From positions 1 to 64,000 of IMG/VR virus record IMGVR_UViG_3300022555_000003: a stretch of DNA of 64,000 bases; one strand, written 5' to 3'. How positions within the stretch are numbered: position 1 is the first letter of the stretch; each line of letters opens with the position of its first letter. The translations under genes were made by a program, and so were the position numbers. This document shows positions 24,955 through 31,360 of this stretch, one piece after another. This DNA is from a virus (Duplodnaviria; Caudoviricetes). The notes beneath the pieces were generated by a model. That model worked only from the letters and a program-made list of their open reading frames with translations, made no database searches and was not told the DNA's origin.

Positions 24955-25451
24955 TGCAGATTAATGAACTATTGGGTAAGAATATATCTGATGAATCATA
25001 TGACTTCAAAGAAATAAATGATGATACCTATAGATTTGAAACTGATTCCAATAGAATATACGATGTTATATTTTCTTTTTTCGAAGGACCACATATAGTT
25101 GAAGTTACATTTGGTCTTAAAGTTAAAGATGCGTCATATTATAATTATGGTGTTGCATCATTAAATGATATGAAAGAAACTATTAAAGTATTTACAACAG
25201 TGATTAATATCTGTAAATTATACTGTGAACAAAAACATCCATTGGTTTGGGTATTTGCTGCCAAAGAACAATCTAGAATAAAGTTATATCAAAGACTTTC
25301 TTTGACTTTAGCAAAAACATTTAATTTAAAATATAAAATTGAAACTATGTATGGTGAAAAGATGTTTATATTGTGGGATAAAACGCCTGATGCGCAGAGA
25401 TTAGCCCAAGGATATATCAATCGAAATCTTGGTTGGGAACCTGATGTTTGA
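24954..25451 (+). CDS. Hypothetical protein (possible degenerate GNAT-like fold)
   Basis: MQINEL leader; F.AKEQSRIKLY.RL. Confidence 0.4.
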   Translation: MQINELLGKNISDESYDFKEINDDTYRFETDSNRIYDVIFSFFEGPHIVEVTFGLKVKDASYYNYGVASLNDMKETIKVFTTVINICKLYCEQKHPLVWVFAAKEQSRIKLYQRLSLTLAKTFNLKYKIETMYGEKMFILWDKTPDAQRLAQGYINRNLGWEPDV

Positions 25452-25979
25452 AGCAGTCTTTCCACCAACCCGTAAGTAAGGTATCCACGATGCATGAGAT
25501 ACTATAATTGGCAACTCGAGACGTTTTGCTGAGAGTGAGTAGTAGTCTGGGACCCAAGGTTTAAATAACGGAGTCCAATGTTGATGTCCTTTACGTAAAT
25601 TACAAGTTTTACAAGCTGAAATACAATTACTCCAGGTGCTTCGCCCGCCTTCACATTTTGGGATAACATGATCCACACTTAAATCTTTATGTGAGAATAC
25701 TTCACCACAGTATCCACACTTATATCCATCTCTAATATATAGAAGTTGTCTGCTAAATCTAACCTTACCTTTTCTAAAATTAAACTTTTCTTTTGTTATA
25801 GCAACTGAAGGTAATTGTATAGATAACTTTGGAGATCTAATCCATCTATCTTCATACAAGTGTATAGGAGTAATTTTTTCAAGGCAATACAATCTCATGC
25901 AATCTTGCCATGAAATAACACTCAAAGGCAAGAAATCTGTTGGCTCTCCTGAATTAGTTAACAACAAGGTGTCTGACAT
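25401..25979 (-). CDS. HNH endonuclease (McrA-like)
   Basis: RDGYKCGYCG...DHVIP...GG...W.NC..ACKTCNLRKG. Confidence 0.9.
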   Translation of the reverse strand: MSDTLLLTNSGEPTDFLPLSVISWQDCMRLYCLEKITPIHLYEDRWIRSPKLSIQLPSVAITKEKFNFRKGKVRFSRQLLYIRDGYKCGYCGEVFSHKDLSVDHVIPKCEGGRSTWSNCISACKTCNLRKGHQHWTPLFKPWVPDYYSLSAKRLELPIIVSHASWIPYLRVGGKTASNIRFPTKISIDISLG

Positions 25980-26020
25980 ATTAATACTTATCCTACAAAT
26001 AATCAGGTAAATATTATTAC

Positions 26021-26410
26021 ATGTCTCGCCCATTAGATACCGTATTAATTAAAAAACCAAATAGAGTACAGAGTTATACTGAAGATCAAATTGAAGAATT
26101 GAATAAATGTCTTGATCCAGTTACTGGCCCATTATATTTTTTAAGTAATTTTTTTTACATACAGCATCCTACTCGTGGCAAGTTACTTTATGATCCATAT
26201 ATTTTTCAAGAACGATTAGTTGATACTATCCATAATAATATATTTTCAATTGCGCTCTGCCCGAGACAAGTGGGCAAGTGTTTAGAGAAAAGTATAAATA
26301 TAACTATAAGGAATAAAAAAACAGGAAAAATTTATGAAATTCCTATAGGAAAATATTATGAATGGAACAAAGATAAAAGAATTGATATTAGCAACTACGA
26401 ACGAAAATAA
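26021..26410 (+). CDS. terL: Terminase large subunit fragment 1 plus split intein N-part (43 aa from Cys at 26279)
   Basis: YFLSNFFYIQHP, ..PRQVGK Walker A, then CLEKSINITIR.. Confidence 0.9.
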   Translation: MSRPLDTVLIKKPNRVQSYTEDQIEELNKCLDPVTGPLYFLSNFFYIQHPTRGKLLYDPYIFQERLVDTIHNNIFSIALCPRQVGKCLEKSINITIRNKKTGKIYEIPIGKYYEWNKDKRIDISNYERK

Positions 26411-27356
26411 AACATATTATAATTGGTGTAAAAAGCATGAATGTGAAAAAAGAGGTAAAGGAACAAATACTAGATGTGAAACTTGCTTAATAGAAAAGTC
26501 ACATTTGAAATTTACTAATGTAAACATAGATGAATGGGTTGAATGTAAAGTATGTGGAATGAGACTAAAAGAACTTGGAGTTCACTTGATTAATGTTCAT
26601 AATATTAATACCAAAGAATATAGAAAAGAGGGCAATTATACAAAATGTAAAATAGCAAGAGAACGGATCAAAGGCGAAAAAAATCCTGGATTTAATCATA
26701 ATGGCCGAATGTCAGCATGGAGTAAAAACTTTAAAAATGGGTACGATGAAGGTAAACATATTCAGGCCAAAGAAAATCATAAAAAGTATATGTCTGAGAA
26801 TAAAGATAAATCGATGTTTAGAATCGATTATTGGATTAAACAAGCAGAAGGAGACACAGAAGAAGCACAAAAATTATATAAGAAATCACAAACAAGAAGT
26901 TTAGAATGGTTTATAAATAAATTTGGTCTAATCGAAGGACCAATTCGACACCAATCCAAAACTGAAAAGTGGATGAAAAGTTTTAAAAAATGTAATTTTT
27001 CTAAAATATCACAAATATTATTTGATGAAATATACAATAATTTAAACGATAAAGATGAAATTTATTATGCAACTTTAGACAGAGAAGATATGAAGAAATA
27101 TTTTAATAAAGAATATATTTTTAAAACGAATAGCTCATATATACGGCCTGATTTTATTTGTTTATCTAGAAAGAAGATTATAGAATTTGATGGAACATAC
27201 TGGCATTCTCCACGTAAAGCTAATATTCTAAGAGACCAATTCAGAGACGATAAAATTTTAGAAAAAGGATTTCAAGTATTACATATTTTAGAATACGATT
27301 TTGAAAAAGACAAAGAAGGAATCATACAAAAATGCCTGAATTTTCTGAACAAGTAG
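26358..27356 (+). CDS. Free-standing Vsr/DUF559-like homing endonuclease inside fractured terL
   Basis: PDF.....KIIEFDGTYWH...RD..RD..I...GFQVLHI.E; Zn-finger-like N terminus. Confidence 0.8.
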   Translation: MNGTKIKELILATTNENKTYYNWCKKHECEKRGKGTNTRCETCLIEKSHLKFTNVNIDEWVECKVCGMRLKELGVHLINVHNINTKEYRKEGNYTKCKIARERIKGEKNPGFNHNGRMSAWSKNFKNGYDEGKHIQAKENHKKYMSENKDKSMFRIDYWIKQAEGDTEEAQKLYKKSQTRSLEWFINKFGLIEGPIRHQSKTEKWMKSFKKCNFSKISQILFDEIYNNLNDKDEIYYATLDREDMKKYFNKEYIFKTNSSYIRPDFICLSRKKIIEFDGTYWHSPRKANILRDQFRDDKILEKGFQVLHILEYDFEKDKEGIIQKCLNFLNK

Positions 27357-28402
27357 AACGAAAATTTATAGATCAAATACAAATCGATAATGAATGGGAA
27401 ATTGAAACCGATACTGGGTGGGAACCCATTACTTCAATTAATAAAACAGTCAAGTATCAAATATATGAACTGTATCTTGAAAATGGAATGTTTCTAAAAT
27501 GTGCAGATACACATATTGTATTTGATGAAAATTTTAATGAAGTATATGTAAAAGATCTTAAAATTACTAATACAGTTATAACTAAAGATGGACCAGTAAA
27601 TGTTAAACAACTTATAAAAACAGATAATTTTGATAATATGTTTGATTTGACTGTCAATAGTAATAATCATAGATTTTATACAAATGATATATTAAGTCAT
27701 AATACAATTACAGTCAGTGGATATTTACTTTGGTATGCTATGTTTGTTCCTGATTCAACTATTTTAATAGCTGCTCATAAGTATATTGGAGCTCAGGAAA
27801 TTATGCAACGTATTAGATATGCATATGAAAGCGTCCCGGATCATATACGTGCTGGTTCAACTAGTTATAATAAAGGTAGTTTAGAATTTGATAATGGGTC
27901 AAGAATTATGGCTCAAACAACTACGCCAACAACAGGTCGTGGAACTTCAATTTCAATATTATACTGCGATGAAATGGCATTCGTACCTGGAACTATAGCA
28001 AAAGAATTTTGGACAAGTATCAGTCCTGCACTCAGCACAGGTGGTAAAGCAATTATTACTAGCACTCCAAATAGTGATGAAGATCAATTTGCTATGATTT
28101 GGAAGCAAGCTAATAAATGCATAGATTCATTTGGAAATAAGACTGAATTGGGTATAAATGGATTCAAAGCATTTAGATCATATTGGGAAGAGCACCCAGA
28201 TAGAGACGAAAAGTGGAAACAAACTGAAATTGGCAGAATAGGAATTGATCGTTTTGAACGAGAACACAATTGCTGCAACGGTAATACAAAAATTGAGCTG
28301 ATAGATAATATAGGCAAAGAATTAGTTATTTCAATGGAAGAGTTTTTTAATATTATAGATAAAAATAAATCTATCGAAGAAAAAAATCATATGAGGTACT
28401 AA
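27332..28402 (+). CDS. terL: Split intein C-part 1 (27332..27703) + TerL ATPase fragment + split intein N-part 2 (from 28271)
   Basis: FYTNDILSHN/T junction; TGRGTS, LYCDEMAF Walker B, ITSTPN; REHN/CCNGNTKIEL. Confidence 0.92.
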   Translation: MPEFSEQVERKFIDQIQIDNEWEIETDTGWEPITSINKTVKYQIYELYLENGMFLKCADTHIVFDENFNEVYVKDLKITNTVITKDGPVNVKQLIKTDNFDNMFDLTVNSNNHRFYTNDILSHNTITVSGYLLWYAMFVPDSTILIAAHKYIGAQEIMQRIRYAYESVPDHIRAGSTSYNKGSLEFDNGSRIMAQTTTPTTGRGTSISILYCDEMAFVPGTIAKEFWTSISPALSTGGKAIITSTPNSDEDQFAMIWKQANKCIDSFGNKTELGINGFKAFRSYWEEHPDRDEKWKQTEIGRIGIDRFEREHNCCNGNTKIELIDNIGKELVISMEEFFNIIDKNKSIEEKNHMRY

Positions 28403-28403
28403 C

Positions 28404-29486
28404 ATGGGAGTAATATTCAAAAAAAATGTAAATCAGTACAAAGTATCGACACCAAATGGATATAAAATGTTCTCAGGAATTAGTTATATGGGAGATAAAG
28501 AAATATATCATTGTAAATTTGAAGATAACATTTGGCTTGAAAGTACTATCGATCATAAAATTTATATTTCTAATACAGAATATAAAACAATCAATGAATT
28601 GGAAATTGGTGATTGTATATTAACTTCTGTTGGTAAAAAGAAATTATTAGAAAAAATTGATACAAACACAATTCAAAAAGTATATGATCTAATAGACGTT
28701 GAAGATGGTCATAGATATTATACCAATGGAGTTCTATCATCAAATTGCTCTTTTATTACAGCAGATGAGACTTTAATTAGTAATATGAAAATTCCTGAAC
28801 TTAAAAGTTCAGAGCCAATATTCATGCAAGGCCAAGTTCGATGGTATTTGACTCCAACTAAAGGTAATACTTACATTCTAGGGCTTGATCCAAGTTTAGG
28901 TACTGGTGGAGATATGGCGGCTATTCAAGTATTTGAAAGCCCAAGTATGAAACAAGCTGCTGAATGGCAACACAATAAAACACCAATACAAAAACAAATA
29001 CAAGTTTTAAAAGAAATGACAAAGTATCTAAGTGATATAGTTGGGAATAACAATATTTATTATAGCGTTGAAAATAATACATTAGGTGAAGCTGCATTAG
29101 TTAGCATAGCTGATATTGGTGAAGAAAATATTCCAGGTATATTTCTAAGTGAGCCATCAAAGTTAGGAACATCTAGGGCATACAGAAAAGGTTTTACAAC
29201 CACTAATAAATCTAAATTGGCAGCTTGTGCTAAATTAAAAAGTTTGATTGAAAACGACAAGATAACTATTAATAGTAAAAATTTAATTTCTGAACTCAAA
29301 ACTTTCGTAAGTTCTGGAGCTAGCTTTTCAGCTAAATCTGGTGAAACTGATGACTTAATAATGGCTACTATTTTAGTTGTGAGAATGGCAACAGTTTTGA
29401 AACAATATGATCCAGCATTAGATAATCAATTTAGTGAGAAGAATGAAGAAGCACAACCAATGCCTTTCATAATGGTATTTAGATAA
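28404..29486 (+). CDS. terL: Split intein C-part 2 (28404..28745) + TerL nuclease fragment
   Basis: YYTNGVLSSN/C junction; LGLDPS.G.GGD, VENN, DDLIMA nuclease motifs; SD gaggt. Confidence 0.92.
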   Translation: MGVIFKKNVNQYKVSTPNGYKMFSGISYMGDKEIYHCKFEDNIWLESTIDHKIYISNTEYKTINELEIGDCILTSVGKKKLLEKIDTNTIQKVYDLIDVEDGHRYYTNGVLSSNCSFITADETLISNMKIPELKSSEPIFMQGQVRWYLTPTKGNTYILGLDPSLGTGGDMAAIQVFESPSMKQAAEWQHNKTPIQKQIQVLKEMTKYLSDIVGNNNIYYSVENNTLGEAALVSIADIGEENIPGIFLSEPSKLGTSRAYRKGFTTTNKSKLAACAKLKSLIENDKITINSKNLISELKTFVSSGASFSAKSGETDDLIMATILVVRMATVLKQYDPALDNQFSEKNEEAQPMPFIMVFR

Positions 29487-29494
29487 ATAATATT

Positions 29495-31360
29495 ATGCCA
29501 AATAAGTCAGAAAATTTACTATTGCACAATAAAAAAGAGCTATTCCAGTTCTTAAATTCACGGTTTGAAAAAAATGTAAAGATGTTTGATGAAGGTGGGC
29601 AGCAAGTTACTGACTATAATAAAGTAGCTGATTTCATAGTTCCATTTTCAGATATGCATGGTCATAAAGTAGATGTTATTAATATTACACTTGAGCCAGA
29701 TGTTGAAAATGACAATGAAGAAAAATATATTATCAAAATGATGTTTACTAAAGACATGTTAAATTCAGGCCATCTTGTTAACAATAAGTTTGATAAATTT
29801 GAAAAAGATCTAATTGCTTGGTCTAAGAGTAGAATGATAGATTTCAAACCAGTTCCAGTTGACGTAGTAGTAAAACGTCATAAAACAATGTATGAAAGTA
29901 AGTTTGGGCCACTTAGTGGAACAGTTAAAACAAGTACTCAAACACTAGAAAATGCAAAATTAATTATCAAGCATACAGATACAATTGATGAGAACATTAG
30001 AGGTTCACGTACTAGAAAAATTCACAAAATTTACGTTGAAAATAGTAATGGTGAAAAGTTTCTGTTACCTTACAAGAATATGAGAGGTGCCAGAGCAATG
30101 GCACGTCACGTGAATTTCGGTGGAAATCCATATGATAAAGCTGGACAATCAATAAGCAATTTTGTTTCTGAAGCAATCGCATTAAGTAAGTTTGTACGCA
30201 AAACAAGAAATAAAAACTTTGATCAGATGGCAACTGAAATGGTCGAAGCTGCTCAAATACGATTAACTGAAGTTAAAAAACAACTTAGTAGATTATGTTC
30301 TGAGCGTGGTTATACCAAGTATAAAGAAGAGTTAGTTGAACAACAAGAAATTGAATTTAATGAAGATATAAAAAGCCATTTTATTCAAAATAAGTATGAT
30401 GAAGCATTAGATGAATGTTTACCATTTGTCTGGGGAGCCTACAAAAAAATGTCTGAGATGAAAGAAATAAAAGAATTTAAAAATTGGGTTGAAGAAGCTG
30501 TTGATCCCCGACTTGATCAAGCTGTTAAGCAAGCAACTAATTCAAAAACACCGCCAGTTTCAGTAGTAACTGATCCAGATGGCACTCAAGAATTACAAGC
30601 TAATCCAGCTGATCCAAAAACAAATGATGCTTTGAAACAAATTTCAAAAAATATGGGTGGCAAATTACCCCCAGTATCAATTAAAAAAGTTACTGAAGAT
30701 GGTATGACTCAATTTACAGTTACATTTACTAAACCAGGTAAGAAGTTAGTTAAGACTATTAATGCTGCAAGTAAAGAATCTGCAGAAATTGAAGCTTATA
30801 ATATGGCTGATAAGAATGGTTGGGGAATCAGAGGTGAAGTTGTACCTGTTCAAGAAACACTTGGTGGTGATAAAGCAGACGATTTTGTTGATTCAGTACG
30901 AGACAAAGATCAACCAATTGTTGAAGACGATGAATTACATATTGACCAAGATGATCAAGAAGGTGAGATGTCATTAGGCGGAATGTGCAAAGAATGCGGA
31001 GTATATTTTGGACAAGATGACAGCTCAGAAAAATCAATGAGTGATCCAAGTAAGTGTAAAGATTGTGCTGGTGAATGTGAAGCTGAAAGAAACGCTGAAC
31101 GTGAAGCAGGCGTAAAATATGAGTATACTGATAAAGTAGGTGGAGACAAATGTATTGAGTGTGGTGCTTTCTTTGACGCCGACCATGATCCATCAGAATC
31201 ATTTTATGCCAAGCGATCAGACGAAGATCCAGATAATAAGTGCAAAGATTGTGCTGGAGAAACTGAATATGGTGGTGAAGAATATCCACATACAGAAGAA
31301 GACACAAACAACTTATTCAATGAAGAATTTAGTAGGATGAAATTTCTATTAAAATATTAG
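29495..31360 (+). CDS. Large conserved-type late protein with acidic Cys-rich C-terminal repeats
   Basis: ATAAATA upstream; GARAMARHV..GG.PYD core; CKECG / CKDCAGE repeats. Confidence 0.5.
   Translation: MPNKSENLLLHNKKELFQFLNSRFEKNVKMFDEGGQQVTDYNKVADFIVPFSDMHGHKVDVINITLEPDVENDNEEKYIIKMMFTKDMLNSGHLVNNKFDKFEKDLIAWSKSRMIDFKPVPVDVVVKRHKTMYESKFGPLSGTVKTSTQTLENAKLIIKHTDTIDENIRGSRTRKIHKIYVENSNGEKFLLPYKNMRGARAMARHVNFGGNPYDKAGQSISNFVSEAIALSKFVRKTRNKNFDQMATEMVEAAQIRLTEVKKQLSRLCSERGYTKYKEELVEQQEIEFNEDIKSHFIQNKYDEALDECLPFVWGAYKKMSEMKEIKEFKNWVEEAVDPRLDQAVKQATNSKTPPVSVVTDPDGTQELQANPADPKTNDALKQISKNMGGKLPPVSIKKVTEDGMTQFTVTFTKPGKKLVKTINAASKESAEIEAYNMADKNGWGIRGEVVPVQETLGGDKADDFVDSVRDKDQPIVEDDELHIDQDDQEGEMSLGGMCKECGVYFGQDDSSEKSMSDPSKCKDCAGECEAERNAEREAGVKYEYTDKVGGDKCIECGAFFDADHDPSESFYAKRSDEDPDNKCKDCAGETEYGGEEYPHTEEDTNNLFNEEFSRMKFLLKY

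Follow-up and report, generated by a model that had tools for sequence, protein, structure and literature searches.

How does a phage obtain a whole large subunit of terminase (TerL) from a gene that is broken into three pieces? The question is raised by the terL locus of the window, by which we mean the entire stretch of DNA analyzed here, the first 64 kb of IMGVR_UViG_3300022555_000003, a 242,080-bp virus record (Caudoviricetes) of the IMG/VR database that has inverted terminal repeats and is 74% complete according to CheckV. In this freshwater phage TerL is encoded as three separate proteins, most likely stitched into one enzyme by two pairs of split inteins. We consider it very probable that the gene has been invaded by two related mobile inteins, that two trans-splicing reactions join the three pieces into a TerL of 521 amino acids (aa), and that an endonuclease encoded at the locus mobilizes the first of the two inteins. 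Coordinates without a prefix follow whole-window numbering; handles consisting of L and three digits denote loci of relatives, those of P and four digits denote metagenomic proteins, and X8 is one public run.

A terminase gene in three pieces

The locus consists of four consecutive open reading frames (ORFs) on the + strand (Table 1). Three of these encode parts of TerL (the exteins E1, E2, and E3) along with N-terminal (IntN) or C-terminal (IntC) parts of inteins, in the order E1-IntN1 (fragment 1), IntC1-E2-IntN2 (fragment 2), and IntC2-E3 (fragment 3), and the fourth, placed between fragments 1 and 2, encodes a putative endonuclease, with overlaps of 53 nt (IntN1) and 25 nt (IntC1). The coordinates, lengths, and junction residues of these fragments and inteins had been proposed in an initial annotation made from the sequence alone, and ORF calling followed by cutting at the named motifs returned all of them as claimed. 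No continuous frame is seen: fragments 1 and 2 share a frame, with dozens of stop codons between them, 51 within the span of the endonuclease gene alone, and thus the split is a true one, and fragment 3 follows in a different frame, across a TAA-c-ATG junction at 28400-28406. Read-through or fusion of the fragments is ruled out by these 51 stops in the TerL frame together with the other frame of fragment 3. A Shine-Dalgarno-like purine run precedes each of the four ORFs. Because counts of promoter and terminator signals in 25300-29700 do not rise above those in shuffled sequences, a single transcript for the whole locus is no more than plausible. The sequence TATAAATA stands 58 nt upstream of the endonuclease start; this motif is not enriched in the window.

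The stretch is present in ten public runs that belong to four freshwater or lake studies of 2016-2020. Contigs of four runs, some of which may be the source of the record itself, were aligned over 26000-29500. In three of the four a single contig spans the region with 0 differences, and the fourth run covers it piecewise, also with 0 differences and with a contig bridging 28400-28406; a contig that bridges this junction belongs to a run that carries no flag as a potential source of the record. The word depth for the identical sequence in the lake contigs is 14-29x. Independent assemblies spanning four years thus arrived at identical sequence, which rules out errors as the source of the stops. 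The TAA-c-ATG junction, which the initial annotation had singled out for checking in reads, is intact in contigs from independent runs, with 0 differences, and an assembly or sequencing artefact at this point is ruled out by the identical contigs from four studies.

A separate observation was made in run X8, from the fourth study, in which contig word depth falls from ~19 to 5-9 across the segment of the endonuclease and IntC1 (26351-27705), with contig breaks at 26387/26412 and 27692/27705, exactly on the borders of this cassette. This suggests that the lake population behind the run is polymorphic for the cassette, some genomes being without it or carrying a variant. Short contigs of other contexts have the last 40 nt of intein 1 (27665-27704) in common with the window, at ~92% identity.

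Virtual splicing restores a T4-type terminase

All three exteins are recognizable as parts of a T4-type TerL. E2 matches the Pfam domain Terminase_6N (E 4.6e-11) and E3 matches Terminase_6C (E 2.5e-7), and the TerL pieces, E1 and E3 included, match PHROG 36964 with E values of 9e-57 and 3e-49. E1 has 39-63% identity to the N-termini of homologues, whether intein-free or split, E2 is 70-81% identical to intein-free homologues, and E3 is 42-70% identical to homologues. An AlphaFold2 model of fragment 2 (mean predicted local distance difference test score, pLDDT, 74.5) is matched by Foldseek to the ATPase of T4 gp17 (2o0j, E 1e-12; also 3cpe). The closest cultured relatives are jumbo phages, the PA5oct-like phages (64% identity over E2) and Atu_ph07.

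If the inteins are removed on paper, a TerL of 521 aa results. In intein-free relatives from IMG/VR, TerL is a single ORF of 523-531 codons, and these ORFs align with the virtual product ungapped across both junctions (for example, ..PRQTGKSTSAAGYLLW.. and ..RFKREHECSFVVADETLI..), both inteins being precise in-frame insertions relative to the intein-free alleles. The GKT motif is whole only after such splicing. The initial annotation had predicted that the Walker A motif RQVGKT would be restored, and it is: the virtual product joins RQVGK to TITV, collinear with the intein-free homologues.

Two inteins split at the same atypical point

Intein 1 is inserted between the Lys and the Thr of Walker A (GK/T, with the slash marking the insertion point), a classic site for P-loop inteins (Kelley et al., 2016, PMC5050341). 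In a phmmer search IntC1 aligns with the gp41-1 intein (6qaz, E 4.6e-7), residues 13-124 falling on residues 20-128 of the 128-residue chain, and thus IntN1 supplies only the first ~20-30 residues of the intein. By this alignment intein 1 is split at the same atypical point as intein 2. A Foldseek search with the fragment 2 model recovered the inteins VidaL (root-mean-square deviation 1.3 over 101 columns), gp41-1, and Cat (TMt 0.75). When IntN1 was aligned with seven split and three contiguous homologues, position 1 was found to be Cys in nine of the 10, with Ser in Atu_ph07. Among 26 middle fragments with 47-62% identity to that of the window, A58, H61, D105, H123, and N124, as well as the first Cys of IntN2 (Cys314), are invariant, and Thr or Ser is kept throughout as the +1 residue of intein 1. 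That intein 1 of the window uses Thr+1, as originally proposed, can be read directly, SHN being followed by TITV. The block B Thr position is Ala throughout the family, a deviation from the TxxH pattern. The tail of IntN1 (..P-D-I-S-x-Y-E-x-K) is kept by relatives, even by one that has no endonuclease gene. With its nucleophile, blocks B, F, and G, terminal Asn, and Thr+1, intein 1 bears the marks of class-1 inteins at the level of sequence, and splicing is predicted.

Structure prediction adds to this picture for pair 1. Residues 1-140 of fragment 2 (IntC1 and 16 extein residues) were modeled in complex with residues 70-129 of fragment 1, alongside three controls, on a scale whose mark is reached by 51 of 78 solved complexes and by two of 108 mismatched pairs. 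The pair scored 0.84, versus 0.01 for the best control, with contact agreement between runs of at least 72% and partner pLDDT of at least 75. The predicted interface involves residues 84-100 and 109-117 of fragment 1, including Cys1, and blocks B (LKCADTHI), F (DNMFDL), and G of IntC1. The model supports docking of IntN1 with IntC1, which would complete the HINT fold.

Intein 2 is inserted at the REHN/C site and is split after block A, into 43 and 114 aa, the IntN parts of its relatives measuring 29-50 aa, mostly 30-31, so that IntN2 of the window has a 13-aa tail beyond their usual length. It was originally said to resemble the Cat and AceL inteins closely. The homology stands, as IntC2 matches CatC (6dsl_B) with a phmmer E value of 1.4e-9; the closeness does not, identity being ~32% over 109 residues. 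IntN2 is collinear with CatN (6dsl_A), weakly (E 1.3), and with 37 metagenomic IntN2 sequences; the Pfam PT-HINT model matches IntC2, also weakly; and the IntC2 sequences of seven other loci are 46-53% identical to that of the window. As for the insertion site in TerL, Cys+1 of intein 2 agrees with that of AceL-TerL and GOS-TerL. The Ser in the place of the penultimate His is indeed present (SSN in place of SHN), and it is not the peculiarity it was first taken for, being the norm of the intein 2 clade (nine of 11 members). The penultimate His is not a universal requirement of inteins.

How the pieces may be joined

The following scenario would account for these features. The T4-type terL of a freshwater jumbo phage would have received related mobile inteins at two sites, and the locus would now be made as four proteins, E1-IntN1, a Vsr-like endonuclease, IntC1-E2-IntN2, and IntC2-E3. 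IntN1 would dock into the cleft of IntC1 and IntN2 into that of IntC2, each pair completing a HINT fold. Two class-1 trans-splicing reactions would follow, each with formation of a thioester at Cys1, attack by Thr+1 or Cys+1, and cyclization of Asn, and E1, E2, and E3 would be joined, so that the GKT of Walker A is whole again and the ATPase is connected to the nuclease through REHN-CSF. Mobility of intein 1 would be driven by the endonuclease; that of intein 2, still carried by relatives, would have been lost here. The inteins would be selfish passengers on whose splicing the phage depends. The gene structure, the homologies, the conserved catalytic residues, the collinear virtual product, and the recurrence are seen directly, and a model supports docking of pair 1; splicing by both pairs, freedom from cross-reaction, and homing by the endonuclease are what we infer.

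Several points weigh against this scenario. None of the RNA runs contains the stretch. The lack of the penultimate His in intein 2 and the Ala at the block B Thr position in intein 1 are family-wide but could slow splicing. The score of the predicted complex, which concerns pair 1 only, may be inflated by the model's memory of solved split inteins. No second TerL-like sequence was found in the 242-kb record, but this record is 74% complete, and a second terminase gene could lie outside it.

Table 1. Coordinates of the parts of the split terL locus in the window and of genes found at the second split in relatives
Feature	Coordinates	Strand	Description
Fragment 1, E1-IntN1	26021-26410	+	129 aa; RQVGK, then Cys1 and 43-aa IntN
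Fragment 2, IntC1-E2-IntN2	27332-28402	+	356 aa; SHN, then TITV; REHN, then Cys and 43-aa IntN
Fragment 3, IntC2-E3	28404-29486	+	360 aa; 114-aa IntC with final SSN, then CSF
TerL N-extein E1	26021-26278	+	86 aa; ends in the first half of Walker A (RQVGK); PHROG 36964, 5989 "terminase large subunit"
IntN1	26279-26410	+	43 aa and stop; Cys1, predicted beta-hairpin, short helix, conserved tail ..DISNYERK
Predicted free-standing homing-endonuclease gene	26358-27356	+	332 aa; C-terminal Vsr-like/DUF559 nuclease
IntC1	27332-27703	+	124 aa; block B ..CADTH.., block F MFDL..NHRFY, block G ILSHN
TerL middle extein E2, ATPase core	27704-28270	+	189 aa; TITV start (Walker A Thr is the predicted +1 nucleophile of intein 1), REHN end
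IntN2	28271-28402	+	43 aa and TAA; begins with CC; core of ~30 aa and 13-aa tail
IntC2	28404-28745	+	114 aa; block B TIDH, block F VYDL..GHRYY, block G VLSSN
TerL C-extein E3, RNase-H-like nuclease domain	28746-29486	+	246 aa and stop; begins with Cys+1 (CSF)
DUF7487 gene	L027:4778-5779		between IntN2 and IntC2
DUF7487 gene	L034:4709-5737		between IntN2 and IntC2
DUF7487 gene	L085:4772-5809		between IntN2 and IntC2
DUF7487 gene	L087:5090-6109		between IntN2 and IntC2
DUF7487 gene	L088:5075-6091		between IntN2 and IntC2
DUF7487 remnant	L020:1884-2249		122 aa; at the site-2 split

Recurrence of the split in relatives

The arrangement is not confined to the window. Fragment 2 used as a query retrieved 7,999 relatives, and architectures were counted over 119 sequences, the window fragment and 118 of the best matches, a sample in which carriers of intein 1 are over-represented since the query contains IntC1. 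Middle fragments of the IntC1-E2-IntN2 type are represented by 28 of the 119 (the window and 27 other clusters), while 80 have IntC1 followed by the whole rest of TerL, four have a contiguous intein 1 and IntN2, six have IntN2 without intein 1, and one has no intein at either site. The triple split was confirmed on three diverged contigs checked in full. One of these (L090) has exactly the layout of the window, with fragment 1, endonuclease, middle fragment, and fragment 3; another, of 493 kb (L087), has endonuclease genes in both splits; and the third, a 130-kb contig from an NCBI assembly (L088), has an endonuclease in the second split only. Among the best 80 IMG/VR loci, TerL is mostly intein-free, a split at site 1 alone being seen in three or four loci and one at site 2 alone in eight.

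Another form is seen in the metagenomic proteins P0008, P0028, P0049, and P0105, in which a contiguous intein 1, with the IntN1 tail, a linker, and ..LS(D/E)QVERKF.., is followed in the same frame by IntN2. The stretch ..LS(D/E)QVERKF.. is the N-terminal start of the IntC1 gene. These proteins look like re-fused or not-yet-broken forms of the split intein 1.

The distribution of split intein 2 was also followed on a tree built on the E2 (ATPase) core. No fewer than 31 changes are needed to explain its presence, and well-supported branches force 13 of these; the mean for shuffled labels is 32.3. Intein content differs between cores that are identical or nearly so (P0011/P0021, P0016/P0024, P0051/P0082, P0009/P0122). 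Such scattered presence fits the gain and loss of selfish mobile elements.

Endonucleases at the splits

Of the 332 aa encoded by the ORF, the C-terminal 70 match Pfam DUF559 (E 2.2e-6, 28 bits versus a cut-off of 20.6), and the motifs ..RPDF.., ..EFDGTYWH.., and ..RDD.. can be read from its sequence. The only PDB sequence match, a weak one, is to 3r3p, a "mobile intron protein" (E 0.03), which we take to be the catalytic domain of I-Bth0305I. The likeness to I-Bth0305I and other Vsr-like endonucleases is in the DUF559 match and the catalytic motifs of the C-terminus; the differences are the weakness of the 3r3p match and the N-terminal two thirds of the ORF, for which no curated family scored above its cut-off and in which CxxC and C2H2-like motifs are found. 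The catalytic Asp, (F)WH, and Asp of Vsr (PMC2677866) align with ..PDF.., ..EFDG.YWH.., and ..DD.. of the window. Homologues with 29-45% identity are present at the same position in five relatives (L007, L009, L016, L087, and L090). By these sequence matches the ORF is predicted to encode a Vsr-like/DUF559 homing endonuclease, and site 1 appears as a classic "fractured gene," in which an endonuclease gene is placed between IntN and IntC on the same strand. This arrangement is present at site 1 and absent at site 2 of the window.

In relatives, the site-2 split holds a gene of the DUF7487 family, a remnant of such a gene, an HNH-like ORF, or, as in the window, nothing. The DUF7487 (PF24308) genes, located between IntN2 and IntC2 in five relatives (Table 1), match their family with E values of 1e-28 to 1e-32, and one copy has a weak match to a TnsA-like nuclease. 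DUF7487 looks like an unrecognized family of homing endonucleases of split TerL inteins.

One relative differs at site 1. In L007:2783-5656 (IMGVR_UViG_3300013126_002828) the TerL frame is open for all 279 codons across the endonuclease gene (L007:3180-4019), which is read in another frame than TerL. No stops are found in the TerL frame, whereas 2000 shuffles of synonymous codons gave a mean of 15.2 and a minimum of seven; 22 stops lie in the third frame, and the window has 51 in the equivalent frame. The stop-free frame makes a cis intein 1 possible in this relative, one that may be made with a linker of ~300 aa overprinted on the endonuclease gene.

Alternative explanations

Could the locus be a decaying or non-functional terminase, an assembly artefact, or a set of fragments that associate non-covalently without splicing? 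An essential gene in three pieces with stops between them would ordinarily be taken for a pseudogene, and the estimated completeness of the record leaves room for an intact copy elsewhere. Against decay or artefact speak the identical sequence and its word depth in lake contigs assembled over 2016-2020, the invariance of the catalytic intein residues across diverged copies, the same break points in many lineages, and the failure to find another TerL in the record; function without splicing is opposed by the architecture of Walker A, from which an intein left between the P-loop Lys and Thr is expected to block ATP binding. We therefore consider these explanations extremely unlikely. The initial annotation had raised a possible assembly checkpoint for packaging. 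In this reading the inteins would serve as a regulated checkpoint that times DNA packaging, with TerL active only when the three pieces are present under splicing-permissive conditions. Both insertions are at critical places, the P-loop and the ATPase-nuclease junction, so that unspliced pieces should be inactive, and conditional splicing has been discussed for other inteins (PMC11766414). However, the changes on the tree are no fewer than with shuffled labels, most of the best 80 IMG/VR loci are without any intein, and homing endonucleases are found inside the splits; together these are the signature of selfish mobile elements. With intein presence so scattered among near-identical TerLs, the checkpoint finds no support, and we hold it to be very improbable.

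The matter of cross-reaction is less clear-cut. The argument that the two pairs need to be orthogonal, as cross-pairing would delete the ATPase core, is logically sound, and since the middle fragment has the order IntC-extein-IntN, cross-reaction would also cyclize this core. It could be that the inteins are not fully orthogonal and that the phage tolerates the by-products, IntN2 with IntC1 cyclizing the middle fragment and IntN1 with IntC2 joining E1 to E3 while skipping the ATPase. The order of parts in the middle fragment is the cyclization order, the one used for intein-mediated cyclization in the SICLOPPS method. In addition, IntC1 and IntC2 are homologues with a common split point and equal length where they align (25% identity over 105 residues, ungapped, E 3e-13), and the IntN fragments of GOS and AceL can reportedly replace each other (PMC11766414). 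On the other hand, no BLASTP similarity is detectable between IntN1 and IntN2, and in at least 28 diverged clusters the two families share a single polypeptide, a coexistence that speaks for selection against harmful cross-reaction. On balance, tolerated cross-talk seems unlikely to us. For the stronger proposal, that the phage and at least 27 other clusters possess a natural pair of short-N inteins that do not cross-react, co-evolved in one polypeptide and performing a one-pot three-piece ligation in vivo, with a site-1 family that is biochemically uncharacterized and would be orthogonal to Cat and AceL, the prospects appear evenly balanced.

Relation to known systems

Each of the components is already known, as atypically split TerL inteins, as fractured genes with Vsr-like endonucleases, and as P-loop inteins. 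The first are represented by AceL-TerL, GOS-TerL, and the consensus intein Cat (Thiel, 2014; Bachmann and Mootz, 2015; cited in PMC11766414), marked by an IntN of ~25-37 aa, an IntC of ~104-115 aa, and a split after block A. Intein 2 is like these in its short IntN and long IntC, Cys1, Cys+1, T4-type TerL host, and split after the first hairpin and helix, and differs from Cat in the modest identity already given, the penultimate Ser in the place of His, and the tail of IntN2. What sets the window apart from AceL, GOS, and Cat is that the gene for IntN2 opens with the IntC of a second split intein, an arrangement of which no mention was found in the part of the literature on atypical TerL inteins available to us.

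Fractured genes with Vsr-like endonucleases were described by Dassa et al. (2009; PMC2677866), and one of the cases was a gp17-like terminase locus with an unusually long IntC of 122 residues. Site 1 of the window shares with them the same-strand order of IntN, Vsr-like endonuclease gene, and IntC, the overlapping frames, and the long IntC (124 aa); the differences are that the window has two splits in one gene and that its site 2 is without an endonuclease. Intein 1 shares its insertion between the Walker A Lys and Thr with P-loop inteins of the TerL1-a type (PMC5050341), and the TerL mini-intein of Vibrio phage Kuja is homologous to IntN1 and IntC1 (38% over IntC1), with Cys1 and SHN/T. These are contiguous, cis-splicing inteins, whereas intein 1 of the window is atypically split and has a free-standing endonuclease. 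The closest counterpart in a cultured jumbo phage is TerL of Agrobacterium phage Atu_ph07 (MF403008; L002:2965-5156), 49-54% identical to TerL of the window and split at GK/T by a homologous atypically split intein (..SHN/T), which differs in having Ser at intein position 1 and in lacking both the endonuclease gene and the second intein. The two adjacent TerL coding sequences annotated in this phage are the halves of a Ser1/Thr+1 split intein that is cysteine-free at both nucleophile positions; the genome paper is silent on the split of TerL (PMC6102473).

In the searchable literature, outside of which many subscription papers remain, we found no description of a natural protein that needs two trans-splicing reactions, nor of an atypically split intein at the P-loop site of TerL, and matches to "two split inteins" were engineering papers only. 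The mechanism is an ordinary one, and the finding is real and recurrent. Protein engineers rely heavily on split inteins and look for orthogonal pairs; especially valuable are pairs whose N-fragments are short enough to be synthesized. To our knowledge, in every three-piece ligation so far it was the experimenter who brought the pairs together. Here one essential enzyme has naturally come to carry two split inteins, in many lineages, and in a topology that would punish cross-reaction with a cyclized middle piece or a lost ATPase. If the pairs do splice without cross-reaction, the site-1 family (P-loop, Cys1/Thr+1, IntN core of ~30 aa) could be used in three-segment ligation with two peptide-sized N-fragments, and Atu_ph07 offers a cultured entry point to the P-loop split intein. 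Stages of the life cycle of such elements can be viewed side by side, with the endonuclease present at site 1, lost at site 2, and, in relatives, full-length or truncated, along with inteins that appear re-fused into contiguous forms. For phage biology, a jumbo phage can apparently depend on two post-translational ligations for its packaging motor, splicing itself being what we infer.

Other endonuclease and fractured genes in the same genome

Next to terL, and divergent from it, an HNH endonuclease gene of 210 aa is located at 25401-26033 on the - strand (Pfam HNH, E 1e-13; PHROG 16726, E 3e-26), the starts of the two genes overlapping by 13 nt. The gene may add one more mobile endonuclease of the free-standing kind, or its product may assist in packaging. 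A second fractured gene is found in the same genome outside the window, at G000:C1:215563-216986 on the - strand, where positions 2-96 and 114-155 of the Intein_splicing model match stretches ~850 nt apart (E 2e-8 and 2e-7).

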